Source of the DNA: Amphiscolops sp. MND2022
Taxonomy: Eukaryota
DNA length: 64,000 bases
Assembly: GCA_964187785.1 (NCBI GenBank)
Contig: OZ076409.1
Span: 39,806,001-39,870,000, forward strand
Reading direction: 5' to 3'
In this document: positions 1,074 to 60,496 of the stretch, piece by piece
Layout: every line of letters begins with the position of its first letter
How positions within the stretch are numbered: position 1 is the stretch's first letter
Notes under the pieces: model-generated
What the model was told of the DNA's origin: nothing
What the model saw: the letters and a program-made list of their open reading frames with translations, nothing else
Databases searched by the model: none
Translations under genes and position numbers: made by a program

Positions 1074-1102
1074 AAGAATATTCCTGCTATCGCAGAAATA
1101 AT

Positions 1103-26250: not shown

Positions 26251-26720
26251 GCAGAATATCTACTAGTCCGAAAAAAAACAAAAGGTTTCACTTACCCAGG
26301 GTTGCCACTCTTTTTCGAAAAAAAATAACGACCTGTCATGTTTTTTGAAAAAACGACCAACAAAACTACAAATAACGTCTTTTTTGGAACTTTATTTTTA
26401 AACTTTAAACTTGCACTTACCCGAAGAATACTCAACATATTTGTTGTATGGCTGGGTCGCTCCGCTCCCTTCGCCAAGTAGCAACATTGAGGCATGGCCA
26501 TATGGCACGTTGCTTCGCTCCTGCATTTAGGGCACTACTAGGAGTATGTGAACATAGCTGACTAGGGGAAATTGAAAAATTCATTTTTTTCATCTTTGAA
26601 CGGACTTCGTTCCGGTCCGCCCGCGTCAGCCAATCAGATTGCAGAGAAAAAAGCGTCCAATAATTATTTTTCGGGTAAGTGAAACCTTTTGTTTTTTTTT
26701 CGGACAAATGAATATTCTGC
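26251..26720. mobile_element. TIR element (gcagaatat..tccgaaaaaaaacaaaaggtttcacttaccc arms) carrying core B
   Basis: ~45-bp inverted arms; core B at ~26436-26563; no clear TSD. Confidence 0.65.
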
Positions 26721-33350: not shown

Positions 33351-34312
33351 TATGCTCTCTGAAACAATATCTCATTTCTAGTCTTCGAAAAATGTGCAAA
33401 AGACCTTCCTCGAGTTCAAAAGATCACAAACCCCAAGTCTTCGCTATATACGGCGGTTTCAACCATCAACCGTTGATTGTATTCAAAGACCTCATACAGC
33501 GCAGTATACAGAACTAAAAAAATTGACAATGCGCCCGTGGCCCAAAAGAATTGAGCCTCTCATAAACATCGGAATACCTGAACTGAATACAAAGCATGTA
33601 GGGTTCCACGATACAATGTAATGTAAGTATTTAATATTTCCATAGTCTTCTCATTGGTAAAACATCATCTGGCTTAACGCTCAAAACCATCAGTATAGTA
33701 AGTATGCTCGAGAAGCAAAAAATACCGCATAATGAAATTAAGACTACAAATTAAGAATGACAAAAAACAAGGGGGAACCAACAGAATAGAATGTTGAAAA
33801 ATTGCTTCAGTTTGCCAAAGTTGTTGTACTTCCTGAGAACCAGTACATGTTTCAATCATCCAGCTCTCTTGGAGAAATATGACAAAACCGTGCGCGACGG
33901 ACTTTCCAAAGTGTGTAACGTGAACTTCGACGATATTTCGAGTACTCAGCTGGCTCTGCCTGCTGAGATGGGTGTTGGGGTTTTATCCGCATCATTATTA
34001 GCACTTCCCGCCTTTTTGGCCTCAGCTTTTGGTGCAAGTGACTTTCTCACGACGATTTTCTCGGAAACATTCGAAGATGTTTCGTTTACAAAAGCGCTTG
34101 AGAGGGGGTTGACTTTGACGAATGAACAGGAAAGTCCTCTCGATGGAACTCAGAAAAACTGGACACAACCTGTCTACGTCAAAACTGCCCAAGATTTGAC
34201 TTCTAGAATGGATGACAAACGTTCGAAAGATTTTAGCGCTCATCAAGGCAAATTCGGGTCACAATGGCTGGACGTCGTTCCTTGCAAGAACCTAGGCCTG
34301 AAACTTGACGAT

Positions 34313-34661
34313 GGGTGGGCGGAAGTAGGTCGAAGGAACGGGATCGAAAATCAGAGTTAGTCCTCAGGTCGACCTACCAAATTTTTGAATGGGATCGAAA
34401 CAACTCGGATCGAAATTTTTATAACGTAGTCAGATATGTTCACATACCCCTAGTGCTCTGAATGCAGGAGCGAAGCGAAGCGGAGCGACGTGCCATATGG
34501 CCATGCCTCAATGTTGCTACTTGGCGAAGGGAGCGAAGCGACCGAGCCATACAACAAATACGATAAAATTTGACAGCATTCCATTCGATCCCTGCAACTC
34601 GATCAAAAGGTTCAACCTCTTTCCTTTCGACCAGAAAAATTCGACCTACTTACAGCCACCC
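34313..34661. mobile_element. MULE-like mini-element (GGGTGG..CCACCC arms, TCGA motifs) carrying core B
   Basis: 9-bp TSD cttgacgat (34304-34312 and 34662-34670) interrupting the CRE coding frame. Confidence 0.85.
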
Positions 34662-34701
34662 CTTGACGATCAGCAACTTCGAATTTCAATTGGTTTGCGT
34701 C

Positions 34702-35206
34702 TAGGGCACGGTAAAAAGTTCGAACGCATAAGTTCGAATTTTAATTTCGAATGGACTAAGTTCGAATTTTCCAAAAACCGGAACAAGTTCGAATCACTGT
34801 GTTCGAATTTTGAACAAACCGCCGTAAGTATAAAACGTACCTCTGATAGTTCCCCAATTCATCTAGTGCCCCGCGGCCCCTTGGGGCCGCTTATGTTCCC
34901 ATCTTGCTAAGCGAGGTCGAACAGGAGCAAAGACCTAGCGGGAACGGAGATCGCGAAGCGATCGTAGTGGGAGCTGGTCTTTGTGGCGGTGAGGGCGAGC
35001 GTGCATACACCGGATTTGCCCCACATTAGAAAGGAAAAGTAAAAAAAAATTTCTGAGACATTTACGAAAGGTAATATTTTATTCTTGACACACCGGATAT
35101 GCCCGATATGAAAATTCGAACTTGGTGTCTCGAAACTATTCCTATTCGAACTTATTCCACTAGTTCACATTCGAACCTAGTAAATCAAACTTATTGCCCG
35201 AAGCCT
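34702..35206. mobile_element. hAT-like mini-element (tagggcacgg arms, ttcgaa motifs) carrying core A
   Basis: TSD (t)tgcgtct of 7-8 bp within the CRE GLRLG codons; core A at 34863-35025. Confidence 0.75.
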
Positions 35207-36102
35207 TGCGTCTCGGTGCCAACATCCACGTTGCGCATACGTGCCACTGTGTCTAAAGAGTTGAACGGGACGGTTTACACGGTCTTTCTTGCACCAATAG
35301 TGCTGGTCGCTTCTCACGTCATGCTATTCTCAATTATCTCATAAAGCAGACGTTGGGATCTCTCGACTTGCCTTCAATGCTCGAACCGCGTGGACAGTAC
35401 CGAACTGATGGCAAACACCCAGACGGTGTTACCATGATTCCTTGGGAAATGGGTAAACAGCTGGTGTGGGATGTCACCGTTGTGGATACTCTTGCACCCA
35501 GTCACCTGAAACAAGGTTCTTTATGCAACCCGGGAACCACCGCCACCGAGGCTGAAGCGCGTCAAATTGAGAACTATCGCGAATTATTAGACAGTGGATA
35601 CGTTTTTCAGCCGATGGCCTTGGAAGTGAAGGGTTCTGTAGGCGAGAGCAGTAAAATTTTCATCACGCGTCTCTGTAAGATGCTCTGTCGTTCGCACGAC
35701 GATCAACGAGCTGGCAGCTTTTTGAAGCAACGGATTTCAGTGTCTCTTCAGATCGGCAATGCGGCCTGTGTTCTAGGAACTGTGAGCGACAGAGATGCGT
35801 TCGAAGAAGTTTATTACATATAGCCTAATTTTTTTGACCTTTATATCAGCAGCTTTAAAAAAATTTCTACCGGTCGACTGCATAGTGGCTGGTTTGAGTA
35901 GTTTGTTGATATTTTTTTGTTACTGGTCTACTGGTATAGTGGCTGGTGTGGGGTTCCCTACTTTCGTTGCAGACCACGGGTGTGTGTCTTCTCCCCCCAA
36001 CCTAATGACACACATATCACTTGATTGATGACAAAAATCCATGACATCTGATAGAGGAAAATGAAAGTAAAAAAATTTACTAAAATTTACTAAAAAATTA
36101 CT

Positions 36103-36385
36103 AAAATCAAAATTTCGATCCCAGTTGTTTCGATCCCGTTCAAAAATTTGGTATCAACCTGAGGACTAACTATGATTTTCGATCCCGTTCCTTTGACCTA
36201 ATTCCGCCTACCTTCTCGGCTTGCCTTCAATGCGCGAACCGCGTGGACTGTACCGAACTGATGGCAAGCCGAGAAGGTAGGCGGAATTAGGTCAAAGGAA
36301 CGGGATCGAAAATCATAGTTAGTCCTCAGGTTGATACCAAATTTTTGAACGGGATCGAAACAACTGGGATCGAAATTTTGATTTT
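36103..36385. repeat. Perfect 123-bp inverted repeat with a 37-nt spacer
   Basis: 36103-36225 is the reverse complement of 36263-36385. Confidence 0.9.
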
Positions 36386-36782
36386 TGGGAAACAAATCGA
36401 ATTGCCGCAGATAGAATTTTTTAGAAAAGTATAAAACGTGTCTCGGATATGTCCCCATTTCCTCTAGTGCCCCGGGTCCCCTTGGGACGGCTTATGTTCC
36501 CATCTTGCTAAGCGAGGTCGAAGAGGAGCAAAGACCTAGCGGGAACGGAGATCGCGAAGCGATCGTAGTGGGAGCTGGTCTTTGCGACGGTGAGGGCGAG
36601 CGTGCATACACAGCCTATGCCCCACATTATGATAGTTAATCGACTTGAGGCAAACAAAGAACGTTTTTGACCCGAAGGCTTTGATCAAGTTCGATCGCAT
36701 TCCATTCGATCCCTGCAATTTGATCAGTAGGTTCGACCTCTGTCCTTTCGACCGGAAAAATTCGACCTAATTACAGCCGCCC
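36275..36782. mobile_element. GGGTGG-family mini-element carrying core A
   Basis: Arms match those of 34313-34661; TSD aagccgaga/aaggcgaga; core A at 36464-36626. Confidence 0.8.
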
Positions 36783-39245
36783 AAGGCGAGAGACACCAAA
36801 GTCTGCTTTATGAGAGAATCGAGAGTTGCATGACCTGAGAAGCGATCAGCATTCTTGGCGCCAAAAAGACCGTGTAAACCGTCCTGTTCGACTCTTTTAC
36901 CACAGTGGCAGGTATGCGCAACATAGATGTTGACTCCGAGACGCAAACCAATTGAAATCTGAAGCAGCTGATCATCAAGTTTCAGGCAGGGCTTCCTATT
37001 AATTGGGTCAGCAAGTATTTGGTGTTTGTTTATTTGGTTCGTTACTATTTGGGTTTGGTGTTTGGGTCTTCACCTTCACCAGTATTTGTATTTGGTATTT
37101 GTATTTCTCAAAATCCACTATTTGCATTTGGTATTTGGGTTGGGTCCGGGACATTTCGTCGACAACTATTTCGCCGACAAATTATTTGACTAGTTTCGTC
37201 GATGGGTTTGTCGAAAAATGTTTGAAGTAAAAAGATTAGAGTAACAAATTAAACAGAAAACTGCACAATACTAAAAGTGCATATAACAGCAAAGATAGAG
37301 AGTACAGTATTATCATAATTGACATATGCATGTCTTCGTTACTCATTGCAATAACCCGAAACCGTTTCTGTTACAAAAGTAACACGCATTTGGTATTTGT
37401 ATTTGGTATTTGGGCCTTGCCGAAGTGTTTGGTATTTGGTAATTGGTTTTCTTTATTTTTTTATTTGGCATTTGTATTTGGGTCTAAAACATACCCCATT
37501 ATTTGCTATTTGGGCAATTTATTGGTTGACTATTTGGAATCTCTGGTTGGTTTCAGGCCTAGGTTCTTGAAAGGAACGAGTTTCAGCCATTGAGACCCGA
37601 AATTGCCTTGATGAGCGGTAAAAACTTTCGAACGTTCGTCATCCATTGTAAAAACCAATTGTGGGCGGTTTTGACGTAGACAGGTTGTGTCCAATTCTTT
37701 TGATTTCCGTCGAGAGGATTTTCTTGTTCATTCGTCAAACTCAACCATTTCTCAAGCGCTCTTGTAAACAAAATTCTTCAAAAATTTCCGAGACAATCGT
37801 CGTGAGAAAGTCACTCGCACCAGAAACTGAGGCTAGAAAGGCGGGAAATCCTAATAATGATGGGGATGAAACCACGAGACTACCCGTCTCAGCGGGCAGA
37901 TCCAGCTGAGTACTCGAAACAACGTCGACGTTCACGTTACACACTTTGGAATACCCGTCAAGCACGGTTTTGTCATATTTTTCTGAGAGAGCTGGATGAT
38001 TGAAACATGTACTGGTTCTCAGGAAGTACAACAACTTTGGCAAACTGAAGCAATTTTTCATCATAAAAAAAACCATAGTGCGCATCCAGTTTTTCAACAA
38101 TCTCGTTAACTTTTTCCAGTTTATTTATTTTCTTTTCCAATAAATCTGCTTGTGATTTCGGGCCCAGCAGTGAACCAAGAATGATAAGTTCATCTTTCTT
38201 TGGTGTTTTGATCCCGGGGCAAAGTTGTTGTAAACATGCTAAAACTGTGGATCGTCGTTTTTCAATGATGTCACCAAGGAAAAAAATTCACATTTCGTGG
38301 ATTTTTTTGAGTCCCAACGTTTTTCCCGCTGCAACAATTTTTTTGAGATTTTTCAAAACGTTTCTGTAATCATCATTTGAATTTCCATCGTCAAGGTTCC
38401 ATAAGTTTATTTTCGACTCCAAACTGTCAATCAGATCCTAACTGGAATCCGAAAATAAAGCTGGAGACTCAAGATCTCCTTGCTGGAACACTTCACAAAA
38501 TTTGGTAACTGAATCACCGTGAAGGAGAAAACTTGGCTTACAGTACGCCAATCATGAGTACTTATAAACTTCATTGTGTAGTTCAAAACGTTTCTTTTAG
38601 CATGGATTGTCGGTTTATCGATTTGAAAGCGTTCTCAAATTCACTTTTCAAAATTACGTTTTTTTTGGGCTGGGAGCTTTCTATCAAACAAGGGAAAACA
38701 TGTGAGGCCAATTTATACCCCTTTGGTGCCTGCAACTATGTCGATTCCCATATCTTGCTTGACGTCACTCGAAGACCTTGTATCCGCCACATTTTGCGGA
38801 CAACCGGCGGAATGTATTGCCTACAGCGATAGGACGAAGTCTTCCATTGGGCTTTTTTAGTGCAATTAGTTTCGCACCAATGAAGTGCGGCCGAAGTTCA
38901 GAAGGTACTTTTCCTTCGAGAATGACATTCACAAGATTTGTTACGGCTCTGAGAAAAATAAGTCCGGTTTGCACGTTCAACTTGGTAGTCAAATCTTTCA
39001 AACTTTGTGGCGAAAAGCTATCCAACACTGCACTAGAGCCGTTGGGGAAGGACTTGACAGCCTTGTGGACGAAAAACTCCAAGGTTGAAAAACAATCGAT
39101 ATCTGTGGGATTCGGAACAGAGCAAGTTTCCCTCTGCGGATGTTTCAGCTTGAGGGCAGCGTAGTTCTCGACCGTGAAATCCGCAATCTTGTCGTCGCCT
39201 AATGCCATTCGGATTCCGGCCTTAAAATTACCTTCGTCCGAATAC
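36783..39245 (-). mobile_element. Degenerate CRE-clade element including the RT domain
   Basis: Peptides LRPIAVGNTFRRL, QQGD, WNLDDG, PKLLYFLRT; homologous to 33788-35400. Confidence 0.85.
36987..37549. mobile_element. hAT-like non-autonomous element with (GTATTTG)n arrays, inserted in the CRE element
   Basis: cagggcttcc ... ggaatctctg; 8-bp TSD gtttcagg (4 extra bases on the right). Contains a truncated gggtccgggacatttcg arm at ~37142. Confidence 0.55.
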
Positions 39246-39675: not shown

Positions 39676-40980
39676 TTAAAGAGTTGAACGAGACGGTTTA
39701 CACGTTCTCTTGCATCAAGAGAACTGTTCGCTTCTCACGTCATGCTTTTCTGAATTCACTCATAAAGCAGACGTTGGGATTTCTCGCCTTGCCTTCAATG
39801 CTCGACCCGCGTGAAATCCACCGAACTGATGGCAGACGCCCAGGGGATGTTACAATCAATCCTTGGGAAATGGGCAAACAGCTGGCGTTGGATGACAAAG
39901 TTTTGGATGCCCTCGCAATCTTCATCAAGCTGAAACAAGGCTCCCCAGGCAACCCCAGAACAACAGCCACCGAGGCTGAAGCGCAAAAAATGTGAGACGT
40001 AACGCGAATTAATAGTCAATGGATACATTTTTCAACCGGTGCCCATGAAAGTGCACGGTTCTTCAGGCGAGAGCAGTGAAATTGAGCGTCTCTGTGAAAT
40101 GCTGTGATTGGCACGACAATCAACGAGCTGGCAGCTTTTTGAAGCAACGGAACTCAATGTCTCTTCAGCTTGACAAGGCGGCGTGTGTTCTAGTAACTTT
40201 GAACGACACAGATGCGTTTGAGGAAATTTATTACATTTGTGTTTTTTTGTACACCAATATATCATTACAGCTTTTTCTGAAACATGTTTCTACCAGTTGA
40301 CTGGGAAAGTAGCTGGTATGAGTAGTTTGTTGATTGGTTTTTGCTGTTAAGGACTTACTGGAATAGTGACTATTTAAGGCTTTCCTTTTTTCGATGCAAA
40401 CCACGGATGTGTGTCTTCTCTCTCCAACATGACGCACATGTCACTAATTAGGTCCAGCTTGTGGAAATCCAGTTTGTAGATTTCTTCACACAAGATCTTG
40501 AGGGCTGCATTGCCTGAGATCTACCGCCTAAGATCTAAAGGAATAACAAAACTGAAAACGCGGGGTTCATCCGGTGTATGCACGCTCGCCCTCACTGTCA
40601 CAAAGAGCAGCTACCACTACTATCGCCTCACGATCTCCGCTCCCTCAGCAAAATTGGAACATATGCGGCCCCCAAGTGCCGCGGGGCACTAGAGGAGTTG
40701 GGGACATTTCCGAGGCACGTTTCATACTTTACGTCAATTCTGCATTATTGGTTGGTTTCATTGTTTTTCTTCTTGAATTGATGATTTCTACAAACTGGTA
40801 TTCTACAGACTAGACCTTATTCAAAATATTACCATGGTCCTGTTTTGTAGAAACAGATTCCACAAACTGGCCTCACTTTTTTACAAACTGGACTCTACAA
40901 TTTGGTTTTTAACAAACTGGTTCATACCTATGGCACTGGACTGATGATGAAGATCCATGATATCTGATGGTGGAAATAAC
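39676..40980 (+). mobile_element. 3' fragment of the CRE-clade element (REL domain plus 3' UTR)
   Basis: Homologous to 35255-36060; interrupted by a core-A element. Confidence 0.8.
40446..40928. mobile_element. Mini-element with ctacaaactgg-motif arms carrying a diverged core A (reverse orientation)
   Basis: Degenerate 9-bp TSD catgtcact/tatggcact in the CRE 3' UTR; core at ~40570-40692. Confidence 0.65.
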
Positions 40981-42429: not shown

Positions 42430-45400
42430 AAAAAAATGGAAATCGGAGCAGTTTAATAGTTCCGACAAGTCCCTCATCAAAAGAACGTTGCGGGAAAGAA
42501 TTTTCAGCCGTGAGTCATTTGATGACGCAAGTAGTGCAATCGCTGAACGCGAGGCAAACAGAGGAACCTCGAAGCTTCTCATAGCCGAATGGATGTTGAA
42601 ATAGTCAAAAACAATCATCGTTGAGACTGGATGACAAGACTTCCAATTAGAAACCCTCCTCGTAGATGCCAAACAGGTTTTGGACGAAGGTATTCTTTTG
42701 GCCATCAGTGAGCATTTGTTGGTGCAAGCAGAGGAGATGTTGGAATACACAATGTCGGAAGCACTAAAAGAGCATAGAATTTTAGCAACCGCATCAAGCA
42801 AGCAAACGAAGAGTAAGAGTGTGCAGTTTGAACGTCTCGAAGAGAGTGCAGATGTTACCAAAGTACTGCAGTACGTACAGCAAGGAAAATTATTCCGAGT
42901 GACATTTTTCCATGCCGGTAATCTACTCCTTGAAGAAGGAAACAAATGATTTGAAATGGAAAAATGTCATGCATTTGTGAATGAGCAACAATTGACACTG
43001 CAAGAAGGATTGATTGAAAAGTCCATTCATTAAATTTATGCTACGGTGAATATATCAACAGCTATGCAATGAAATGCATTGTCAAAAGTGAAAAACAAGT
43101 CATGAAAGCACGTTTTGGAAGGAAAGCTGATTTCGACTTCAAGGCAAGCCTTGTTGAAGTAGCTATCTTGAGAGATAGCAATGTATGAAACTATTGGAGC
43201 GGTAAAGGAACCTCTAGGCTGATCGCAGTGGCGCACGCTAACGGCACTGATAAATTGGATTTGTGCATTGGCCACATCAGACACTCGACGGAAAGAATTT
43301 GCAAGATTGAACCTAAGCCAAACCTGGTACATGGAATGATGAAAAGAGCTCAAATGAACAAACATTGAATACAAGATGAAAATTTTAGGCTAAGAGCAAA
43401 GAGTAGCAAAGGGACTGAGTTGAAAACACAAAGCCACAACAAGTTGCACTGGGCTTGAGGACTCTGAAAAGAGAAGGAAGGACTTCAGTTACCGTAATAA
43501 TGATACTTTTTTCTGTTTCTTGTTTGTTTATTGTTTTGAGGGACGCTTTCAAGTGTCACGCATCCAAAAAAGAATTATGGAAGGATTAGAGAACGAACTC
43601 GCGTTGACATTTCTTCTCAGTGGTCAGTCAACTTCGATCAGAATATCGGTAGCACAGCAAAAATTGAGGAACTGGTTGAAGACTTTTTCGACTTACCTGG
43701 AAATTGACTCTTTGGATGTTGACGTAAATATAAAGCTGTGTTAATTGAGCTGCAAAATTTTTGTAAAGTACTTTTTAAAGGTTTAAAAGAAGAGCAAGTG
43801 ATTGAACTCAATGAAGGTCGGACGTTGATGTTGAAGTTTCTGATAATTGTCAAAACTATGACTTGAAGTGAGAAAACTGTTTTTGTTTGAATCTTTGGTT
43901 GTCTTAAGTCAATATGTGGGAAAAAAATCTATTGTGAGCGATCTAGACTTCAAACTGAAAAAAATTTTGCACTAGATCACCGACAGTTGATGTGCAATCC
44001 ACAACAATGTGCTAAGTCAAACAGATTTTGAATTCGAGATCAGTGATTGTCAGTAATGATCCTGAAGGGGACAAGACGTTTCGGCGACAGACGTGTCATT
44101 GGACGTTTCGGCGACAAACTGTCGCCGAAACGTCTCTAAACAGGGTGGGAGGAAAACTGTCCCCGAAATGTTTCTTCAAAGGATGGGCCGAAAAAATATA
44201 TGAAGATTACGAGACTTGGCTTTTTTTTTATATATTTTATCACGAGACTTGGCTTTATATACATCATATTGAAGATATCATTTAAAAAGTACAAAACGTG
44301 CCTCGGATAGGTCCATATATACTCTGCAACTGCTCTTTGGATCTCGTGGCATGAATTAACACTGGCGGTGGGTGTTTGGATCGAATGAATTTGCGCGAAT
44401 GTGCAATCTGTCACTGAGATCGAAGTAAAATGGTGAAAGAAAATGAGATCGAATCAATGTTCTCAAATACCTAGCATTTTTAAAACAACAATGTTTTTCG
44501 ACGTCGGATATGCCCCCATTTCCTCTAGTGCCCCGCGGCCCCTTGGGGCCGCTTATGTTCCCATCTTGCTAAGCGATGTCAAACAGGAGCAAAGACCTAG
44601 CGGGAACGGAGATCGCGAAGCGATCGTAGTGGGAGCTGGTCTTTGCAACGGTGAGGGCGAACGTGCATACACAACATATGCCCCACATTTTAGGATTTTT
44701 GCTTTCAGAACGAACGTTTTTGGTTTTTTAGAGGACGTTTCGGCGACACCCTTGTCGCCGAAACCTCCGCCGCCATATTGTCGCCGAAACGTCTCTCACC
44801 GAAACGTCCAGATTCCATCCTGAAGATTTGGAAGCCTTCACTTCATCTCCTTTTCTGCTAGGGCGCGCCAGTCCGGCAATTCCATTCAATCCTGACGCTC
44901 AGTGATATACGGATCTTCGAATAGTTGTCACAGTATCACTAGGAATGAGACATCTAAATGGATCATAGAAGGAGTTTGAAAGTTGGAATTCAAGGATGTG
45001 GTTTGGATAGTTGATGAGAATGTGGCAGGAGCACACTACAAGATGGGTGGAGTGTTGGAAGTCTATCATAGAAGCAAAGAGCGTGTAAGATCAGTGCTGG
45101 TGAAAACGGAAGATGGAAAACTCAAAAGACCAGTATAATACTGGCACTCTCGTTTTACGAATTAATTCTTCGGGAGAAAGACAGGGCCGGCAATGTTGGA
45201 GCCAGTCAATCGCAAGTTCAGAAACTTGAAGTCTAACGTGACTGATGAAACCTATAACTCAAACACCTTGAAAGGTTGTTAGGATTTAGGTTGCAAAATG
45301 AAAGTTTGGCAGAAATAGTGTTGGCGGGACAAAACCCCACCCCTCTTTTTGAGAATCATTCGTACACCTACCCTGAAATTTGTTAAGCATATTCAAGAGA

Positions 45401-47282: not shown

Positions 47283-48187
47283 CCCGGGTTTCCCTCCCAT
47301 ACAAAAACAGGTCAATCATACACTGCCATCATACTCACAGTATGATTCCAGGCTGATCATACTCTGGACCATAATGGTTTATGGTTCCAGGCTGACCATA
47401 CTCTGGACATATATGGTCCAGTCTATGATCAGCCTGGAACCATAAAAAAGCAAAGTTTATGGTTCCAGCCTGACCATATTCTGGGCCATATATGGTTCAG
47501 TCTATGATCAGCCTGGAACCATAAACCTTTATGGCCCAGAGTATGGTCAGCCTGGAGCCATAAAAAGAAATTTAGGATAATGTAGTCAATTAACACGTAC
47601 ACTGATGAAATTACAAGATATTCCTCAACCAAAGGTCCAATACAATCACCAAATTGAAAACAAGGTAGCAATTATCAATTTTGGGCATCTTTTGCTGAAT
47701 TATTGGTAATTTTTCTCGAAATAATCGAAAATCATACTGCAAAGTGGGTACTGCTATAACAAAAGAGTTAGTTATTAACTAATGAGTGGCTGAGAACAAA
47801 TTGAGTTACTATAGTTTGTCTTTAACTCCGCTTAGAGCTTAACGGAGTTCTGACCTGCAATGTATCGTTCGCAGATACAAAAGGTCGAATGTGGCTCCAT
47901 TGCTCTCAGCCTACAAAGCTGGCTGTTCTCAATATTTGAAAATTTTTGTTTGAAAATTAAAAAAATATATATTAAAAAAATTTATGATTCCAGGCTGACC
48001 ATACTCTGAACCATATATGATTCCAGGCCGATCATACTCTGGACCATATATGATTCCAGGCCGATCATACTCTGGACCATATATGATCCCAGGCCGATCA
48101 TAGCAAGATCATAGTAAGGAAATTTGTATTAGTTCTATGGTGCCATAATATGGTCAGATTATGATCGGCCTGGTCGGGAAACCCGGG
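47283..48187. mobile_element. CMC/EnSpm-like non-autonomous element with subterminal ~33-bp tandem repeats
   Basis: TIR cccgggtttccc/gggaaacccggg with 2-bp TSD CA; repeat unit atgattccaggc(t/c)gatcatactctggaccatat in both orientations. Confidence 0.7.
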
Positions 48188-48749: not shown

Positions 48750-51250
48750 GCTTGGCTTATTTGAAACAAAATGGTTAACTCCCATCTGATCTAAACAAAG
48801 TCTTGGACGTGACCCTCATGAAAAATCAAAAGTTCTAAAGGACACTTTCTTCAGTGGGAGGCACCTGGAAGAAGAATTTTTTGACAATACTTTCTGTGAC
48901 TCTATGGACAAAAATCTGCGAATGATAAATGACCTGGAAAAAAAACGAAACCTATGAAAACGAATGGTATAATCGTGAAATTACTCTGGACGAGCTTGAT
49001 GGAGTCCTTGGTAATTTACGGAACGCATCCAGCTCTTTGGATGACGACAATCTTCACCCAAAAATGATAGTATTTTCCGGTCTATATTTCCGCACGGTTC
49101 GTATCACTTTGTTTAACTGGTGTCTTGTCACATCTGAATGGCCGTGGCCTGAAGCCCGTGGTCTCTTCATGGAGAAACCCTCGAAACCGGACTACATGGA
49201 CCCAACTGTCTACAGACCTCTGTCAATTACTAGCCGTATTGGAAAAATTTTTGAAAGTATTCTAAACAACTGTCTAACGGATTTCTTGATGAAAAATCAA
49301 CTGATCGACCACGAACAAGAAGGTTTGCTCGCGAACAGAAACACCACGAGATCATTATTCTGAATAAAAATTGAACACGAAAATCTGAAAAGGCGGAAAA
49401 AAGTTGCGACGTGATAAACTTAAGTTTGCAAAAAGCTTTCGACAGTGAGTGGCAAAACTGACTCCTAGCAAAGCTATGGACTGCTGGTATTCGGGCTGTT
49501 TCTTCCGTATTATTGCGACATACCTTAAGAGTGGACTTCAATGAACAAAAATTGATGGCTGGCACAGCCAAGTTTTCACCCCAAAACAAGGTCTTCCTAA
49601 AGGGAGTGTGATTTCACCAACACTAATCAGTTTTTACATAGCCGACATGCTCAAAACAAGCTATGGAGTGAAGTTCAAGTATGCTGACGACTCTCAGTTC
49701 CTTGTCACGGCAGCTAACGAGGAAAGTAGTTCAACACATCATTCAAAGGACCCTAACAACTGTACAGCAATGGTACCGCCCGTGGCGCCTGGAAAAGACC
49801 GATGTTGTACTCATTAACGGTATAGCGCCATGCGTTCAAACCTTCTACCTCGGCAATCAGAAATGTAAAGTTAAGAATAACACCAAAATTCTTGGAATAT
49901 TGTTGATGAAAAAATGACTTTCAGACAACATACCCAATCTGGTATAGGTAGGGGCAAAAACAAATGGAAAGAGCATCGACTGTCTTGCACGAAAAAATGG
50001 AGTTTATCTAGGCGAACTTTAGTTAGTTTGTACAAACCACTAATCCTCCCTCAAGTTCTTTATTGCGCTCCTGTATGGACACTGATTAACTACAACAGAC
50101 TTAACAGTTTCCAAGGCTTCATATTAAGCGACATTATGGACACAACTCAGAACCCGCACTCCAAAGCTGCGGAAGTTTTTCTCGCTACTACCAATCGACA
50201 TTATATGAAAATATACCCGTCAAGTTCATGACTAAAGCACTCACATCAACAGACAAACTGCAACGATTGATACTGGAGAACCAGCAACGCCTCAACTTTG
50301 TAACAATCCACTCTAACTGTTTGAAGCAGTTTTACAACAATAGGATTCTCGAACTGACTGACCTTCTGAATTACACAGGCACAACCCGTCGATTTGATAT
50401 CTTTAGACGATGGAATGACCGAAGAGGAACAAAATGGACTTCGATACTCACCTTAACATTCTTGTCCCTAGAAGAAAAATGGAGTCAATGTTAGGGTGGG
50501 GTATTTTGGATCGGATTTTTATGTGAGCGAAAAGCGAGATCGAAAACGTATCGAAAGGTTTGAGATCGAATTGTTACGTTTTTGCTATTATTTTGCTCCT
50601 GCAAAGCGTTCAAATTATTTGAGGTACTTTTCTGCACCTAATATGGAGTCATATACGGTGTATGCACGCTCGCCCTCACCGTTGCAAAGACCAGCTCCCA
50701 CTACGATCGCGTCGCGATCTCCGTTCCCGCTAGGTCTTTGCTCCTGTTCGACCTCGCTTAGCAAGATGGGAACATAAGCGGCCCCAAGGTGCCGCGGGGC
50801 ACTAGAGGAAATGGGGGCATATCCGACGCCGAAAAACATTGTTGTTTGAGAACGCTAGGTATTTGAAAACATTGAGTCGATCTCATTTTCTTTCACCATT
50901 TTACTTCGATCTCAGTGACAGATTGCATAATCGCGCAAACTCATTCGATCCAAACACCCACCGCCAGTGTTAATTCATGCCACGAGATCCAAAGAGCAGT
51001 TGCAGATAGAATTGGAACTTTTACTTGATACCTGTCCTACAATAAACAACTTTGCCTACAACAGGAGCCTAACAGCCAGTCCGCTCTGCTCTTGCGGAAG
51101 AAATGAAGTGACTGTGATATACTTTCTTTTTTACTGTCAGCTTTATGAAAACAGAGAATTGTCTACGGAAAAACTCCACATTCACGACTGGGAAGACTAG
51201 TCGACACTTGGTAATTGATATACTTCTAGTGGGCAATTTGCACTCGAAGG
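48750..51250 (+). mobile_element. Degenerate APE-type LINE ORF2 (RT and C-terminal CCHC region)
   Basis: YRPLSITSRIGKIFESIL, KAFD, KYADD, CSCG..E...FLFYC; related to the LINE at 53.9-58.5 kb. Confidence 0.8.
50494..50963. mobile_element. Mini-element with gggtggggtattttggatcg arms carrying core A (reverse orientation), inserted in the LINE
   Basis: Degenerate TSD tcaatgtta/ccagtgtta; core at ~50657-50805. Confidence 0.75.
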
Positions 51251-51889
51251 AAACGATATTGCTACTAACGAGACATCAACCTTGGAGGTTGACCCATCCA
51301 ACGAACAACAAACTGAGCTAGCAAACAAGTGAACCGATATATTTATCTTTTCTAGTCTATTGATGTATATATCTAGTCTTCCACTGTAAAAGGATCTCAA
51401 TCAGTTGACTAGTCGTACAATTTTGATTGTTTTTGCTTTTATGTGCCGAAATAGAGTTATTGATTATGTCGTGCCAATTATTTCTTTACTTCTGCTAAAA
51501 CTTCCACGAATCAGAAGGTTTTGTAAAATTTCAAGGCTGCTTTTGGCACTGATATTGAAATTCAGTCCAAGCAAAGAATAACAGTAACGTCTGAAAATTT
51601 TTCGTTGTCAAAAGGGGATAGAAGCAAAGGTACGGTCCAGTCAGATGGCATCGGTTAAAAATACCAACAAGACGGGAACCTCTAAAGCCGGTGCCATATC
51701 CAATGCTCAAAAAGCTCAAACTTTTTGAAATTGTAAAAGGGGTTTTTTGGGTTTTTGAAAATCCATTTTGTTGCGGTGTGTAACGTTTCAAACTTCGGAT
51801 ATAGCGTGCTGGCCCACATGGGAGCGCTTTTTGAACCTCCGCCTCCTCTTTCGTAAAACGGAATATAATTCGGAGATGACATCAAAAAT

Positions 51890-52620
51890 TCGGAACTAAT
51901 TGCGCTTTTCTCAAACAGGAATTAGAACTAATTTGTTTCAGGAATTGGAACTAAAAACAGGGATTAGAACTAATTCGTTACGGGAGTTGGATTTAAAAAA
52001 GTGGGAATAAGACCTTGAATGTGGAATGAGGCCCAAGATGAGAACGAAATTTTATCTAAAGTAATAATATCTAAAGTTTTTCGAAGTATCAAACCTCTGA
52101 TTTTTCCCCATTACTAGTGTCCCGCTGGTTCTTGGGCAGGGGTTGGCAATCAATTATAGGGTATTCAATTAATTGCAATTATTGGTAGCAATTAATTGAT
52201 CGGTATCGTTTTTCAATATCAATTTTTGATTGACGTGTGGCAATTATTGCAAATGTTTAAATATACGTTTAAAAAATGTTTAAAAAATTGGAAGACAATT
52301 TGTCGAAAATACTTTTACGAGAAAAGTACGGATAGTGATGATTGGATGTGTGGCTGTGGAAAATAGTTGAAGAAGAGGCACGAGACTGGTTGGACTAACC
52401 TCTATGCCCATCCAAGCGTTCAACATGATGTTCCTTTGAGGCCGCTTATGTTCTCATCTTGCTAAGCGAATTCGAACAGGAGCAAAGACCTAGCGGGAAC
52501 GGAGATCGTGAAGCGATCGTAGTTGGAGCTGATCTTTGCGACGGTGAGGGCAACGTGCATACACCGAATATGCCACACAGAAGAAAGTACTGATCTTTTT
52601 GTGAGACATTTACGAAAGTT
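51890..52620. mobile_element. Element with a gaactaa-motif arm carrying core A split by a caggggttggc hAT-like fragment
   Basis: ctagtgtcccgc at 52114; the rest of the core at ~52440-52578. Confidence 0.55.
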
Positions 52621-52753
52621 AAACTTATTTTCTTGAATGAAATGATTCGAGATCCGACTATTTTATAAAATCAATGGGAGGAAAAATATAATGATTGTAT
52701 CAATTTTATGTTGTTCAATTGTGTTACCTTATATTCGTACTACTTTCATGTTC

Positions 52754-53095
52754 GGGTCAGGGACATTTCGTCACAAGCCATTTGGGCGACAATATGGCGT
52801 CGGTCACATGGGCGACAAAAGTGTCGACCAAATGGGTTGATCAAACTGATCAATTAACTAATATATAAAGAGGTTAGCATATTTGTTGTATGACTCGGTC
52901 GCTTCGATCCCTTCCCCAAGTAGCAACATTGAGGCATTGCCATATGGCACGTCGCTCCGCTTCGCTTCGCACCTGCATCTAGGGTACTAGGGGTATGTGA
53001 ACATATTTGACGGGACATTCGGCCGACATTACTGTCGCCCAAATGGGCATTCATTTTTGTCGCCCAAATGGCTGGTGACGAAATGCCCCTGCCCC
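52754..53095. mobile_element. MULE-like mini-element (gggtcagggacatttcgtcac arms) carrying core B
   Basis: Perfect 9-bp TSD ttcatgttc; core B at ~52878-53005. Confidence 0.85.
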
Positions 53096-53695
53096 TTCAT
53101 GTTCCACGTTTCCAATTTGCGTTTTGTACCATGTTTTTATCGGATTCCGGACGTTTCGGCAAAAGACGCTTCGGCAAAAACATGGCGTCGGACGTTTCGG
53201 CAAAAAAATATGCCGAAACGTCTCAGGCTAAAAGCATTTGCCGAGACGTTTCGTATGATATGTGGGGCATATCCGGTGTATGCACGCTCTCCCTCACCGT
53301 CGCAAAGACCTGCTCCCACTATGATCGCTTCGCGATCTCCGTTCCCGCTAGTTTTTGCTCCTGTTCGACCTCGCTTAGCAAGATGGGAATATAAGCGGCC
53401 CCAAGGGGATGCGGGGCACTAGAGGAAATGGGGACATATCCGAGGCACCTTTTATGCTTCGCATCATTCCTACATTATTGGTCTCATCGTTTTTCTTGGG
53501 TGGGCGGAAATAGGTCGAAGGAACGGATCGAAAATCAGAGTTAGTCCTTAGGTCGACATACCAAATTTTTGAATGGGATCGAAACAACTCGGATCGAAAT
53601 TTTTATAACGTAGTCAGAAATGTTCACATACCCCTAGTGCCCTGAATGCAGGAGCGAAGCGAAGCGGAGCGACGTGCCATATGGCCATGCCTCAA

Positions 53696-53895
53696 NNNNN
53701 NNNNNNNNNNNNNNNNNNNNNNNNNNNNNNNNNNNNNNNNNNNNNNNNNNNNNNNNNNNNNNNNNNNNNNNNNNNNNNNNNNNNNNNNNNNNNNNNNNNN
53801 NNNNNNNNNNNNNNNNNNNNNNNNNNNNNNNNNNNNNNNNNNNNNNNNNNNNNNNNNNNNNNNNNNNNNNNNNNNNNNNNNNNNNNNNNNNNNNN
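53696..53895. other. Assembly gap (200 N)
   Basis: Run of N. Confidence 1.
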
Positions 53896-56800
53896 ATGAA
53901 TAGCGGGAGCTGTGAGTTTAACATGGATTCGGCGAGGTTTCCAAAGTTGAATTTACTCCGGATTTCTTCGTATCTGGGACATTCTAATATGAAGTGGTGA
54001 ACAGATTCTACGTTTGATCCACATGGACAGCGTGGGGATTCGGTTAACCAAACTTTGTATAGAAAGCCGTTGAGAGGGCAGTGTCCCGTTAGGAGTCGGA
54101 AAGTGTTGACTTCATTTTCTCTAGAGTGTGTCGTGAAGAGGGAGCGCGGGGGGATGTGGAAAATTCTTCTGAGGTGCGAGTCTTGGTACAGCCAGTAATT
54201 TACCCACAGATGGTGTTCATATCTATTGATATCGGATTTTCTGTATTGGAACGTATGTACGTCAATCTCGTCCAGTTCGAGGCGGTGGCTTGATCGCAGA
54301 TTGTTTTTGAAGGCTAGGAAGCGTTTGAGTATAGTGACATCATTGTTAATTTTAGGGTTGGCTGTGTTGGGATCGAAGATGGTATGTTTCAGATTATCTC
54401 CTTTGACGTAGAGTTTGGCCAAGAATTTTGCGGTTAACAGTTCGATTTGGATTTTAATGGTTTTGATGTCGGTGAGGAGCTCAAGGTCACAATTTGCCGG
54501 GTTGTAGAAGGATCCAGTTGCTGAGTATAACCATGCTCTTTGCAGAGTGATCAGAGGGTCGAGATTGCAATCGGACAGGGCTGAGACTCCGTATAGGATT
54601 TTTGGTAGTGTGAATAATTTGTAGATTTTGAGGATTGATCTTGCGGTGAGTCCGGAGTATGGGCTGCAGAACTCTTTTATCCTGTTGAGATCAGCCCATC
54701 CTTTGCCCGCTGCGGATGTCACTTGTTTCTTGGTGTTGCCTACAATAGTTCCCACTATGATGATATCGTCTTTTAGTACCTTAGTTCCTTTGACTAGGAA
54801 AGTTTCTTGTTCCTTCTTTTCGGAGGGAATGAAGTTAACTGGGAGGAATGCTGTTTTGGATGTGTTAATATTGATCTGGTTCTGATGACACCAGGCAAAG
54901 AGTTTTTCGAGAGTACTTGATGAGTAGCTCATGACTTCGGTTGTATTTTGTGCGGTTAGTAAGATTGAGGTGTCATCTGCGTATTTGTAGACTGAGGCTC
55001 GAGGTTCATTGTCGAGAAGGTCTGTAATGAAGATTATGAAAAACAAAGGCGAGAGGATGCTGCCTTGAGGTAGTCCTATTTGACAGGGTAATTCTTCGGA
55101 GATGAAGTCGTCAAGGATGATCTGTATCTTCCGGGTGCTGAGGAGATTATTGATAATGCCAAGAAGATCTCCCTTTATGCCGGCGAGATGAAGTTTAGTT
55201 ATAAGAATGTTAGTATTTACGCTGTCGAAAGCTTTTTCAAGGTCTATGCTTATCAACATTCCCTTGAGGTTGCTAGTCGTTACCTCTCTCAAGTCAGTGA
55301 AAATTTTGTATAGGAGTCTGGAGGTGCCACGTCCTTTTCTGAAACCTTCCTGATTGTCATCCAAGTAATTATTTATCGAGATTATCGATAGGACTTTCTG
55401 GCTAAGGATCGATTCAAGGATTTTCCCTACAAGGGTGATGGGGCGGTAGCTCTTTGGTTCAAGGTAGTCTTTCTTTCCGCTCTTAGGAATGAATATCACT
55501 TTGCCTTTTTTCCAGACCCAGTGTTGTTTTTGGATGCAGCAGTTGAACAGATGAGTCAGAATAAGTGAGAGACTGGGACCAGAATAGCGAAGCATTTTTG
55601 GGTGGAAACCATCAATATCAAGAGATTTGTTGTTGCTTTTCACTTTCCGTAGTGCTTCTTCAACGTCTGAATGCGAGATTAAACATGCTCCCATCGCGTG
55701 GGAGTTTTCTGTCAGTGCACGGCTGGCCGATAGATAGTTCTCTATATTGCTTTGGGTGGAAAAGTTCTCTGATGCTAGGTGTTCGCCTGTAAAGAAGGAC
55801 TTTCGCAGAAGGTCACTTTTCTCTTGGGGGTTAAAAAGAATCTCGTTTTGATCGTTTTTGAGGGGGCCCATTTTCGATTTGTCGCGGTCGAGAGGTGTAG
55901 TTTTGTATCTTTTCCAGAAGTTAGTTGTGTCTGCTTTGTTAAGATGATCGAGGTAGCGTTGCAGCCAAGAGTTATGAGCTGAAATTATCTCCTCTTTGAA
56001 AGCATCTTTGCTTTTCAAAAGTTCCTCTAAGTTTTCTTGATTATTGCGTTTTCTGTAGGCAATTTTATTTCGTCGAAGAGTTAGAGAGAATTCTGATAGC
56101 TTGCTGTTCCAAAAAGGCTTGGAGTAATTTGACAGTAATTTAACTGGAATAGTAGTGTCGACTGTTCGTATAAGAGCTGATTTTGTGATATCCCAGATTG
56201 TCTCAGGGTCGTCACTTTCGAGGATTCCGTCGAGTTCGGCGGTCAGGTTATCTTCTAGAGCAGTTTTCCAGACGGTCCAGTCGGCGTTGTCGAAGTCTTT
56301 CTTAATTTGTCTAACAGTTTGGCATTTAGAGAAGAGTCTCCAAGACCAGATGATTGGATAATGCCCCCTGCGGGGTGCGCCTGAGAAAAGTTCAGCTCTG
56401 GCCGTTGACCGATACAAATGTTGGCCCATTCGGGTGACTAATGTTCAGATCGTGGTCCTGGAGCAAATTGAAGAGCATGAGTCCGTGTTTGTTCGTCGAA
56501 TGATCAGACCAGGCAGGGTGTCTTGCATTGAAGTCTCCCAGGATTAATACACCGTCTAAAGAGTTACTGCTGACAAATTCCCGACATTTAGACAGGATAC
56601 TATCAAGCATTTTCAATTGTTCTGGATTATCTGGGGGAATGTAAATGCTTGCTACTAGTAATCGAGTATTCTTGTCGCTCGCTAGAACGAATACTGCGTC
56701 GATCTTGTCATTTCAAGGGACGTAACTTCAGCTGAGCTAAGGTTGTCGTGTATTGAGAGGCTCACTCCCCGCCCGACTTTGGATGCGAAGGTTGAGTAGG

Positions 56801-58516
56801 TTTTGAAGTGATTTTTACTCAGTAACCTGGTTGTTTCGCAGATGGCCAGTATGTCAATGTTGTTTTCGAAAACGTATTGTTCGATTGCAAGCTTCGAGTG
56901 CGTGGAAAGGCCGTTTATGTTGATGAGCATAGATTTGATGAAGTTATTTGTGCTAGTCATGATTAGTGTTATTCAACCATTGCGGGATCTCTAGCTGGCA
57001 GAGTTTGAACAGTTTGACTAGAGTTTTCCTATATACAGGGCAGTTGCTACTGTAGCTGACGTGACAATGGTTGCAATTTGAGCATTTAATATCTTTGCTG
57101 TCGTCACAATTGTCGCTAGAGTGTCCATTTTCACCGCAGCGTGAGCATTTCGTTTCTCTGTTGCACAATTTGGCACTATGTCTAAATTTTTGACAGTTGA
57201 AACAACGGATAGCTCGGGGTTTCTCAAAATATTCCTCTGCAGAATAGTGTCGGTTTCCCAGGAAAATTCCGTCTTTGAGGGATTAACTGAACGAGGGTTT
57301 ATCTGGCATGGTGATAAAGGCTGTTTTGAGGACGGTGCCATCTTTTTTTACGAATCGTTGGAAGGAGCAGTTTGGATAGTCGTTTTGCAATAAAGCGATG
57401 ATTCTTTCATCTGTTCCTTCTTCGTCGCAATCTTTGATGATGACACGGTTTGCAATTGTTTTGGAGCGGCGAGCTCGTGTGTCCTCTCCAAGGCATTTGG
57501 ATTTCCAGCTATCGATCATTGTTTGAGCGGTCGCCGCATCTTCCAGATGAAGAAAGACTGATCCGTTCGCGAGTGCTAATGCCTGTTTTATTTTAACTCT
57601 GGGGTAATGGTTCGAGATTTCCCTTTTGATGGCCGAGCTTGACTTAACAGCTTCTTTCATTGTAACGATCTCGATTATGACAATGTGGTTGTTGTCAGCC
57701 GATTTGATATTGACTCTGGGACTCTCTGTGGGGCTGGGCTTTGGGGGTGGTGGCCTGACAAGAGGTTTGGCTTTGGGTTGGGTTACCTGTTGGCTAATGT
57801 GCGAAGGAATGTTTTCTCGACTTGATTCCAGTGATTTGAGAGTGGGGACAACCGTTGAAGGGATTTTACTGACTTCAGCTTTGATTTCGGCGGTCACTTT
57901 GCTTTGAGTAGCTTGTTGAGATCTGACAGTTTCGATTTTGCCTTCGATGTGCTCGGCGTTGGGTTTGGATTGACTTTTCAGCGATGGTAGGCAGGTTTTG
58001 CAATACCAATAGCAGGATTCGTACTTTCCCAGCACAGTAACGTGTTCGGATTTCAATTCGGTGCATTTTGTGTGGAACCTTTTTTCGCACATCTCACAGT
58101 TTATGCTCCTCAAACGCTTTGCTACACTTTTTGCACTTGGACATTATTAAACTTACTGTTTTTCTAACGGAAGCCAGCGGAATCGGAACCCCGACAGGCC
58201 TCAGTCAGAAATTAACAGAAAGTGTGTCTACTTTGACCGTTTTGCGCCCTCTGGACAATTTACTGTAGTATACTACAGACAAAAAAGGCACACGACTCGT
58301 GATACCTAAGGTCTGGAAAAGACTATGGGTTTCTTGAAAGCCAACTTAGGTACTGTCTCTTGCGGTCTTCGGGCAAACTCGTCCACTTTCTGCCTCTTTC
58401 TGGAAATCTTTAGATAAGAGGCAACCAACACCAACAACAAACAACAGCTGAAGCTATTTAATAAGTTTATCACAACAATTAGGCTGGGGACAAACAATCA
58501 CAAACAATCACAACAA
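53896..58516 (-). mobile_element. Near full-length APE-type LINE: ORF1 (PHD plus three CCHC knuckles, ~58144-56953) and ORF2 (APE, RT, CCHC; 56960 to the gap), with frameshifts
   Basis: ININGL, ICET, GDFNARH, YRPITL, IDLEKAFDSV, GLPQGSILSP, YADD, CPCG..ESVHHFILEC. No RNase H motif seen; clade not determined. Confidence 0.92.
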
Positions 58517-58750
58517 TTCGATCAAAAGGTTCGACCTCTGTCCTTTCTACCAGAAAAGTTCGACCCATTTACAGCCACCCGTTTTTCTTCAATTCCAGAA
58601 TTCTACAAACTGGTATTCTACAAGCTGGACCTAACCAGTTTGTAGAAAACCAAAAACAAAACCAAGATAATACGGGACGTTTCGGCATGAAAAATTTGCC
58701 GAAACGTCTCGAGTTTTTTTTTTGCCGAAACGTCCTGTTCCCTTTTTATC

Positions 58751-59201
58751 GGCTTCCGGTAATAAAGTCGAATTTTGACTCGTCGAATGAATAACGTCGA
58801 ATGAATAGCGTAGAATTTAGTCAAACAGAAAATTTTAGGTTGAAAAAATATTTGAGGTTCTTTTCCCCACCTAGTATGGGGTCATATACGGTGTATGCAC
58901 GCTCGCCCTCACCGTCGCAAAGGCCAGCTTCCACTACGATCGCTTCGCGATCTCCGTTCCCGCTGGGTCTTTGGTCCTGTTCGTTCTCGCTTAGCAAGAT
59001 GGGGACATAAGCGGCCCCAACGGGCCGCGGGGCACTAGAGGAAATGGGGCATATCCGACGGCCAAAACATTGTTTGACCATTTTACATTTGCAATGACAT
59101 CGACGCAATTACTTCGACATAAGCCCGTCGACGATGGTACTTCGACGCTAGTTAAACGGTTCAAATTCGACTTTAGTCGTTCGACTTTATTGCTGGACAC
59201 T
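58751..59201. mobile_element. Mini-element with ggcttccggtaataaagtcgaa arms carrying core A (reverse orientation)
   Basis: 22-bp imperfect TIR flanked by (c/g)tttttatc; core at ~58889-59038. Confidence 0.75.
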
Positions 59202-59807
59202 GTTTTTATCAGCTGCGTTTTTTTCCTATTTCAATTAGTCCTATTTCCATTAGTTCTGAGGCGGCACTAAGAAGAATTAGTTTAGTCCTTTAAAATTTCC
59301 ATTAGTCCTATTTCAGTTTTGATCATTAGTCATATATATTTGAAAGATCGCCCAATTCAAGTGTCTGAAATTGATTGTCCTAGAAATAGTGTCTTTGATA
59401 ATTAGTGGAATACTTGACGCGATCAGAACCTCTTACACTGAAATTGATCGCGATGATGATGTGGTGATTTAACAATTGACCAATGACGATCATGTCGAGA
59501 AATCTTTCAACTTCATTTCGAGATGTTCTTCTTGTAGCTCTATTCAATAGTACTTCTATCTTAGCAGGATTATGAAAACACGGACAGTTGACAACTCGAT
59601 TTTTTTAAAAATTGTTCATAGAGTCTGATTTTTTTCATAGAAGAATTTTCCAATGACAGTCGTTGAACACGAGTGTTTACTATCATTCGATAAATGCTCA
59701 GTGTGCATTCGAAAGGGGCTGTTCTGCCTTGTAGATTAGAATCTTCATGTGAAGGCCATCGTAGCCTTATACAATGCGGAGGTAGACCAGACGAGACTTT
59801 GAGCAAA

Positions 59808-59966: not shown

Positions 59967-60496
59967 TAGAGTTTGTTTGATGATACGTGTTTTTATTTTT
60001 CTGCTTTTTGGTCTATGAGATGATCTTTTACCGTACGTTTCATCATTTGACTTCATCCCAAAAACTTAGAACTTTTTGAAATTATTTTTCGAAATATTTA
60101 TTTTCAGTCGGCGCTTCAGAGAAAGCCGACTAAAGTAATGGCTTTTTTAAGAACAGTGAACTGACAGATTTCATTAAGTTGCTTCGACTGTAAAGCAACG
60201 TGCATGTGCGTAGGTTCGAATCCTAGTATCGACAATCTGATTTTCGCAGCAGTAAACGAGACCAAAAAGAAGGTCATTTTTTTCAAAGTTTGATGTTTCC
60301 AGTTCAGAAAAACTTCGAGTCTCAAGGGTCACCCCTTCGAATAGTGTTTGGCACTTTATGGTAATTGAAAAGTTACACAATAGTTGTCCCTTGAGTATTT
60401 CAAACCGGTGAATTCTTTTTGAACCAGTGAATTTTCATAGCAAGTTATAACTCCCTTATAATTGAGTATTTGACAATTCCACGGACTTTTTCAGAA

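Follow-up and report, generated by a model that had tools for sequence, protein, structure and literature searches.

Does a shared pair of transposon arms mark a slot into which different centres can be exchanged? The question is raised by three elements (E1, E2 and E3) in the window, the whole 64-kb stretch of DNA analysed here, which have related GGGTGG arms around one of two centres, core A or core B. A preliminary description held that these arms carry different cargo, that homology stops abruptly at about the same internal positions, and that the centre behaves as an exchangeable cassette slot. Our evidence base comprises the window and eight contigs of one public run. The three elements are laid out as follows:

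34313..34661, + strand: E1, a GGGTGG-arm element with core B; target duplication CTTGACGAT at 34304-34312 and 34662-34670
34313..34422, + strand: E1 left arm, carrying repeated GGATCGAA units
34427..34561, + strand: core B of E1, with end motif TCAGATATG..CTAGTG, four GC-GNA-GC mini-hairpins on the same strand and far end CATAC..ATA(T/C)G
34562..34661, + strand: E1 right arm
36275..36782, + strand: E3, of the E1/E2 arm family; core A with spacers of ~44 bp and ~53 bp; duplication 8/9 at 36266-36274 and 36783-36791
36464..36611, + strand: strict core A of E3, 148 bp, from CTAGTG to GCATACAC
53498..58580, + strand: E2; left arm 53498-53606, partial core B 53611-53695, N gap 53696-53895, nested LINE, right arm 58514-58580; duplication GTTTTTCTT
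36103..36234, − strand: inverted duplicate of the E3 left arm plus flank, 108/108 identical within the arm; a fold-back rearrangement or an assembly artefact

By alignment, the left arms match at 106/109 positions for E1/E2, 99/108 for E1/E3 and 97/107 for E2/E3 (E3 left arm, 36275-36382), and the right arms of E1 (34562-34661) and E3 (36683-36782) match at 86/100; overall, the E3 arms diverge from those of E1/E2 by 8-14%. The claim of shared arms around cores B and A therefore holds for all three left arms and for the right arms of E1 (core B) and E3 (core A), but E2 is only partly visible, with 198 bp (85 bp of it core B) followed by a 200-N gap, a LINE with a reverse transcriptase and 67 bp of right arm. 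We treat E2 as one element because its two target-duplication copies match. E3 starts with AGGTAGGCGG and not with GGGTGGGCGG. Between E1 and E3, arm homology stops on the left at 34422/36382 and resumes on the right at 34562/36683, enclosing a centre of 139 bp in E1 that is nearly all core B and a centre of 300 bp in E3 that comprises core A and two spacers. The reported agreement of breakpoints is thus borne out for one A-versus-B comparison, without a replicate, since E1 and E2 are one subfamily; nor does similarity vanish at the breakpoints, as the two centres still align in the same orientation (score 41 versus 22.9 ± 3.9 for shuffles, P 0.001). The sole other junction nearby is that of the inverted copy of the E3 left arm (36103-36234), which stops ~3 bp further in than the left breakpoint and is itself a possible assembly artefact. 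The fold-back spans 36103-36385, with 132 bp of E3 left arm and flank in near-perfect (98%) inversion and short microhomology at the switch, and may be a template-switch inversion or an artefact of assembly. An Rfam match to MIR949 at 36185-36303 reflects this palindrome and scores 42.5 bits against a gathering score of 100.

The 9-bp target duplications around E1, E2 and E3 all differ from one another (matching at 9/9, 9/9 and 8/9 positions), and hence each element moved as a unit; the chance of a 9-bp duplication at two fixed positions is 5e-6 for an exact match and 2e-4 with at most one mismatch. A paralogous or allelic empty site with one target copy is present for all three. The E3 target occurs in single copy within host paralogues at 35340-35400 and 39770-39820, the E2 target in single copy within the paralogue at 40750-40800, and the E1 host site is empty in a public contig that joins 34312 to 35210, without E1 and the neighbouring F element. 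The ends of E1-E3 are imperfect inverted repeats, GGGTGG..TAGGTCGAA, that start with G runs, and the arms of each element contain three or four GGATCGA units. E1-E3 thus have the 9-bp duplication usual for Mutator/foldback elements (range 8-10 bp), composite terminal inverted repeats with short repeated motifs, and a variable non-coding middle, the 139-bp and 300-bp centres having no Rfam or tRNA match at threshold. With every sequence feature tested being present, E1-E3 look like non-autonomous Mutator/foldback-type miniature transposons in an animal genome. The host repeat that holds E1, E3 and F is, we presume from its translation, a restriction-like-endonuclease non-LTR retrotransposon; the two ORFs tested matched no Pfam family.

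The window encodes a KDM5 demethylase, SNRNP200-type helicase fragments, a kinase and a reverse transcriptase, and the best named relatives of the KDM5 are animal proteins. No transposase, MULE DDE included, was found among the 14 window ORFs scanned. The KDM5 gene (29064-33350, − strand) is a single ORF of 1428 codons, apparently intron-free over that stretch. A nearly identical 5.6-kb tandem duplication at 222-12510 overlaps helicase gene fragments, either as a recent duplication or as a haplotype artefact, and exons of the kinase gene, with a coiled-coil region and a Pfam Pkinase assignment, lie at 60431-62475 (+ strand); we take this gene to resemble a tousled-like kinase. A separate, abundant dispersed repeat family with GCCGAAAAA / GGGACCCTTTGG units has many diverged copies at 300-26000 and 62700-63400, and a tandem repeat at 47338-48102 has a 33-39-bp unit with internal palindromes of the CCAGGCTGATCATACTCTGG type.

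The same cores lie within a wider set of elements:

34704..35205, + strand: F element; GTTCGAA-repeat arms, core A at 34863-35010, duplication 8/9
40451..40816, − strand: Z element; GG..CC arms, 3-bp TTA duplication, older core A with a 29-bp deletion
44068..44816, + strand: Y44 element; GACGTTTCGG arms, duplication 9/9, broken core-A start at 44281-44325, then 372 bp 94% identical to half of X plus flank
50494..50963, − strand: X element; GATCGAA-repeat arms, core A, weak duplication 7/9
52754..53095, − strand: W element; GGG(T/G)CAGGG(A/G)CATTTCG arms, core B, duplication 9/9
53142..58741, − strand: Y53 element; Y arms, core A at 53260-53459, captured Z-type arm, E2 nested within, duplication 8/9
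58751..59201, − strand: V element; GTCGAA-repeat arms, core A, target 9-mer in common with Y53 (8/9)
26251..26720, − strand: T element; 48-bp inverted arms, core B at 26436-26564, bounds provisional
51880..59345 (approximate), + strand: U element; loosely inverted GGA(A)CTAA-repeat arms, core A split at ~52097-52136 and 52431-52579; host to W, Y53, E2 and V

In total, the window contains eight copies of core A (one split) and four of core B, and a profile search of it found no further full core and no third core type. All 12 copies lie between inverted arms and none is free-standing; the core is central in these elements, mostly with 80-200 bp per side. The arms fall into about nine types, designated G (E1-E3), F, V, X, Y (two copies), W, Z, T and U. 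A 9-bp duplication flanks eight of the elements at 8/9 or 9/9 positions and X at 7/9, while the 3-bp duplication (TTA) of Z is weak evidence alone; together with the GG..CC ends, we take it to be a PIF/Harbinger-like signature. When 10 elements were compared in 45 pairings, the arms resembled each other clearly beyond shuffled sequence only in E1/E3, Y44/Y53, W with both Y copies, and the two captured halves described below. In pairs other than the G, Y, W-Y and captured-half ones, scores run from 15 to 32 where shuffle maxima run from 23 to 33, with marginal similarity for F/V, X/V and E3/V (29-32 versus 27-28). One further core-A element occurs in the public contigs, at another host-repeat site and with a 9-bp overlap; its side stretches of 150 and 172 letters have no placement on 33500-37500.

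The region 51880-59345 is deeply nested, with W, Y53 and V inside U, E2 inside Y53 and the LINE inside E2. Y53 and V lie head to tail, and their common target 9-mer is present three times (53133, 58742 and 59202). The insertion that splits core A of U (52136-52430) starts with CAGGGGTTGGCA, and a related CAGGGTTGCCAC end is found inside T (26298-26312); both ends look to us like those of hAT-type elements. On the right side of the F element, at 35091-35111, lies a third copy of the right-end motif of core A (ACACCGGATATGCCC).

Seen against this wider set, the cassette-slot idea is partly right and was placed too narrowly. The same arms do carry two centres, both of which moved as units. Tabulated over the window, GGGTGG arms hold core B twice and core A once, and BLAST and profile searches of the window found none with an empty or third-cargo centre, so that a dedicated slot at the inner arm ends does not emerge; the A version is a single copy, yet has its own duplication. 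None of the eight contigs of the public run spans a GGGTGG element. The sharper boundary is formed by the core's own ends, CTAG and CATAC, not by the inner arm ends. Because cores sit in many unrelated arm families, their exchange is not special to GGGTGG arms and belongs to the cores.

Among seven of its eight copies, strict core A (148 bp) keeps 89-97% identity despite unrelated arms, with private differences only; the Z copy is older, at 82-87% identity to the others. Divergence from the core-A consensus rises from 30/887 (3.4%) inside CTAG..CATAC to 27/227 (11.9%) just outside (Fisher P 4e-6), as calculated over six copies, Z excluded, with flanks of 21 bp and 17 bp and boundaries chosen after alignment. 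One end of both cores has TC-RR-ATATG ... CTAGT and the opposite end has CATAC ... ATATG; within G arms, the two cores point the same way. Similarity between B and A reaches P<0.01 in 18/21 pairs at the left end and P<0.05 in 16/21 at the right. A degenerate left-end motif, which was built from these A and B ends and so shows sharing, not prediction, finds 12 sites with at most two mismatches (0.76 expected), of which 11 are ends of cores and the other is a chance match within the LINE. Because their ends and orientation are shared, A and B are two versions of one kind of module, not unrelated cargo; what remains of the "different cargo" is two distinct but related centres. The same shared motifs make homology available for exchange. 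Within GGGTGG arms, B probably replaced an A-type centre, a tentative reading suggested by E1/E2, which keep a TATAACGT flank that resembles the TATAAAACGT of A and is absent from the other two B copies.

Standard folding gave a z of about -2 for core A and no signal for core B. GNA-type mini-hairpin motifs are stable in single-stranded DNA. In core B, GC-GNA-GC mini-hairpins number four, three and two on one strand and zero on the other (P<0.001, 0.005 and 0.022; 0.31 expected for the count of four), and core A has a hairpin in which 20-bp arms enclose a GAA loop and the mismatches pair purine with purine (P 0.002 or less in 4/4 copies tested); these values are suggestive only, as the hairpin score was devised after sequence inspection and a whole-window scan also ranks unrelated AT-rich sites high. 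On its minus strand, core A also has a perfect 7-bp hairpin before CTAG. No covariation was found in core A (1/50 pairs), and its copies show decay. As candidate identities for the cores, a tRNA-derived SINE and a known structured RNA were both rejected, with no tRNAs found, no Rfam hits at gathering and no match on either core in a relaxed Rfam search; a riboswitch match in the relaxed search was noise (E 0.64).

Two elements retain traces of how cores may change partners. Although its Y arms are intact and its duplication is exact, Y44 holds the first 45 bp of the core-A end and, after it, a 372-bp stretch with 94% identity to half of X; this stretch takes in 43 bp past the end of X (43/43 identical). 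In Y53, a Z-type arm lies beside the core, inside intact Y arms with a duplication. Both are templated captures that left the core on its CTAG side. The capture junction of Y44 falls inside the TCT of the CTAG end, with 3-bp microhomology to the donor, and fits either repair or a dedicated nuclease.

We lean, with modest confidence, towards an account in which the mobile unit is defined by the arms and cores travel from one family to another through homology-primed repair. The arm-to-arm unit transposes and leaves a 9-bp target duplication, as the duplications themselves attest. A Mutator-type DDE transposase encoded elsewhere would bind the repeated GGATCGAA arm units, then cut and paste the unit. 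The centre is one of two related hairpin-rich modules, A or B, found in common across many arm families. Breaks in or beside it, whether excision gaps or breaks at hairpin ends, might be repaired by strand invasion into another element via the core or the short shared end motifs, whereupon one centre would overwrite another or a neighbour's arm would be dragged along. The new arm-core combination could then amplify as its own subfamily. Three different 9-bp duplications, paralogous empty sites and repeated-unit arms with G-rich ends favour this repair account, and core A at 89-97% identity across unrelated arms, the templated captures in Y44 and Y53, the end motifs common to A and B, and the variable middles of published Mutator/foldback families (PMC3169594, PMC4079207, PMC2817404) point the same way. 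Against it, ordinary repair predicts neither the conservation step at CTAG/CATAC nor the Y44 joint at the CTAG end, and accounts neither for the central position of 12/12 cores nor for so many core-bearing arm families; only three GGGTGG copies are available, and no transposase is among the 14 window ORFs. Strand-invasion repair thus explains the captures, whereas the sharp boundary and the position of the junction keep a dedicated nuclease in play.

Such a nuclease is central to a rival that we consider rather unlikely, in which the core is a tiny single-strand mobile module of the HUH/rolling-circle type that has CTAG and CATAC as its ends, hitch-hikes on the arms, and inserts or exchanges at a conserved GATATG..CAT motif in the middle of a mini-transposon. 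This amounts to the earlier cassette idea with the slot shifted inward to the core's own ends. In its fullest form, which is doubtful, A and B would be two families of a single-strand DNA module not described before, one that lives on mini-transposons as their parasite or helper, nuclease-cut at CTAG/CATAC and exchanged site-specifically among unrelated Mutator-like and Harbinger-like elements. Both the conservation step and the Y44 capture joined at the CTAG end are what such a module would leave, and the 7-bp hairpin before CTAG on the A minus strand and the strand-specific DNA-type hairpins of B (4 versus 0) and A, by the post hoc score, are in keeping with it. TC starts 13/13 left ends, as in Helitron HLE1; however, C or G precedes each and never A, where the rule is insertion between A and T, and CTAG is internal to the shared sequence, mostly without a T after it (terminal rules from the passages of PMC11417382 on Helitrons and Helentrons). 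HLE1 has a terminal hairpin followed by CTRR at its 3' end; the A minus strand offers a counterpart, but the CTAG there is internal to the shared sequence and shares its end of the core with TC, and B lacks the hairpin. HLE2/Helentron, which has 11-18-nt terminal inverted repeats and a stem-loop, was rejected for want of such a repeat in 9/9 cores (best inverted score 4-7, P 0.34-1.0). Short direct repeats at both core ends, a Replitron feature in the passages of PMC10288648, reach P<=0.016 in 4/7 A copies but are not significant in 3/3 B copies, and those passages report no Replitron in animals. The module reading also has to contend with folding that is modest for A and absent for B, with the 1/50 covarying pairs, with the lack of a stand-alone core (0/12), and with the absence of an HUH gene from the 64-kb window.

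A selected role for the core, which we judge quite unlikely, would make it a cis-acting transposition helper, such as an internal enhancer, a bending or pairing element or a gap-repair priming site, that sweeps unrelated arm families; families capturing it would amplify better, which is compatible with exchange by repair. The central position of every core within inverted arms, its greater conservation than the flanks, and the retention of the same end motifs and hairpin type by two divergent cores would all fit, and internal sequences tune MITE mobility (PMC9921582). Recent spread by conversion, however, yields the same conservation pattern; that copies decay without compensation is expected after insertion and is neutral on selection in active copies. 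Finally, E3 could be a one-off recombinant, or A and B could be unrelated repeats that landed independently in the same arms. The single A-bearing copy of GGGTGG arms in the window, the heavy nesting and rearrangement of the region, and the fold-back duplicate of the E3 left arm would suit such an accident, which we nevertheless hold to be highly improbable: with its own duplication and arms 8-14% off E1/E2, E3 transposed as a whole and did not arise freshly as a hybrid of E1/E2 copies, and A and B are related at both ends in the same orientation. Moreover, since the E3 spacers resemble those of Y44 and F (P 0.002, 0.001 and <0.0005, with part of the signal supplied by a shared AAGTATAAAACGT flank), its centre is not a unique scrap.

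How mini-transposons that share almost nothing with an autonomous element originate and amplify is an open question, and here a fixed arm-core-arm body plan recurs across unrelated arm families with traces of exchange still visible. If the core is merely passed by repair, as we favour, the locus would clearly document how modules are shuffled among transposon families in nature, and would also be a warning for repeat annotation, in which the core would merge unrelated families. If it brings its own cutting machinery or raises mobility, the core would form a new tier of selfish element and offer a short cis-module open to direct testing. A nuclease-exchanged module, if true, would mean that the mini-transposons of this genome are built combinatorially from interchangeable arms and cores.

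Searches for relatives found no match to the GGGTGG arm pattern in metagenome contigs, and the one match to the core A pattern there was a chance match in a GC-rich coding contig. Pattern scans found none in viral contigs or prokaryote genomes; core A had no match in phage or plasmid records, nor core B in plasmid records. The literature, surveyed by titles and abstract openings with thin coverage of subscription papers, gave no account of one core common to unrelated arm families in an animal. FB and sea-urchin TU are further foldback elements, and the TU work, which lies outside that coverage, may be the closest precedent.

Set against known systems, the same ends with two related hairpin-rich centres are ordinary for such elements: because middles vary in published Mutator/foldback and MITE families, the finding of two centres in the same arms, taken alone, is an expected property of a known kind of element. 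The same centres inside many elements with unrelated ends are unusual, and suggest that the centre spreads between families. Single-strand elements offer partial parallels. In the passages on HLE1/HLE2 (PMC11417382) and Replitrons (PMC10288648), these resemble the cores in the hairpin that precedes CTAG on the minus strand of core A, in having TC at one end, in the short direct repeats near the A ends and in capture beyond one end, and differ in insertion-site and terminal rules that the cores do not follow, in that the cores have no free-standing copies, and in that no Rep/HUH gene is known here. Among foldback elements, Tetris of Drosophila virilis has middles that differ between members in the passages of PMC4079207; our elements, by contrast, have short arms (100-150 bp) with imperfect inversion, and what lies between them is a module that is shared, structured and conserved, not miscellaneous filler. 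The passages on grapevine Pack-MITEs, for example mPifvine-2 and mPifvine-4.1/Mila (PMC2817404), describe 13 internal sequences within the same ends and one family amplified with part of another repeat in its centre, a likeness in same ends and different centres; the pieces captured there come for the most part from genes, and each belongs to a single MITE family, whereas here two related non-coding cores cross families with different duplication lengths. As described in the passages of PMC3169594, the Tm1 Mutator/Foldback family of root-knot nematodes is like E1-E3 in its composite repeated-motif arms, asymmetric short termini and 9-bp duplications, in its non-coding members of <0.5 kb, and in classes set by inter-arm content (hairpin-containing, MITE-like or transposase). 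Unlike our elements, Tm1 has a known transposase-coding member, and those passages contain no middles common to unrelated arms, whereas here the core recurs in about nine arm types.
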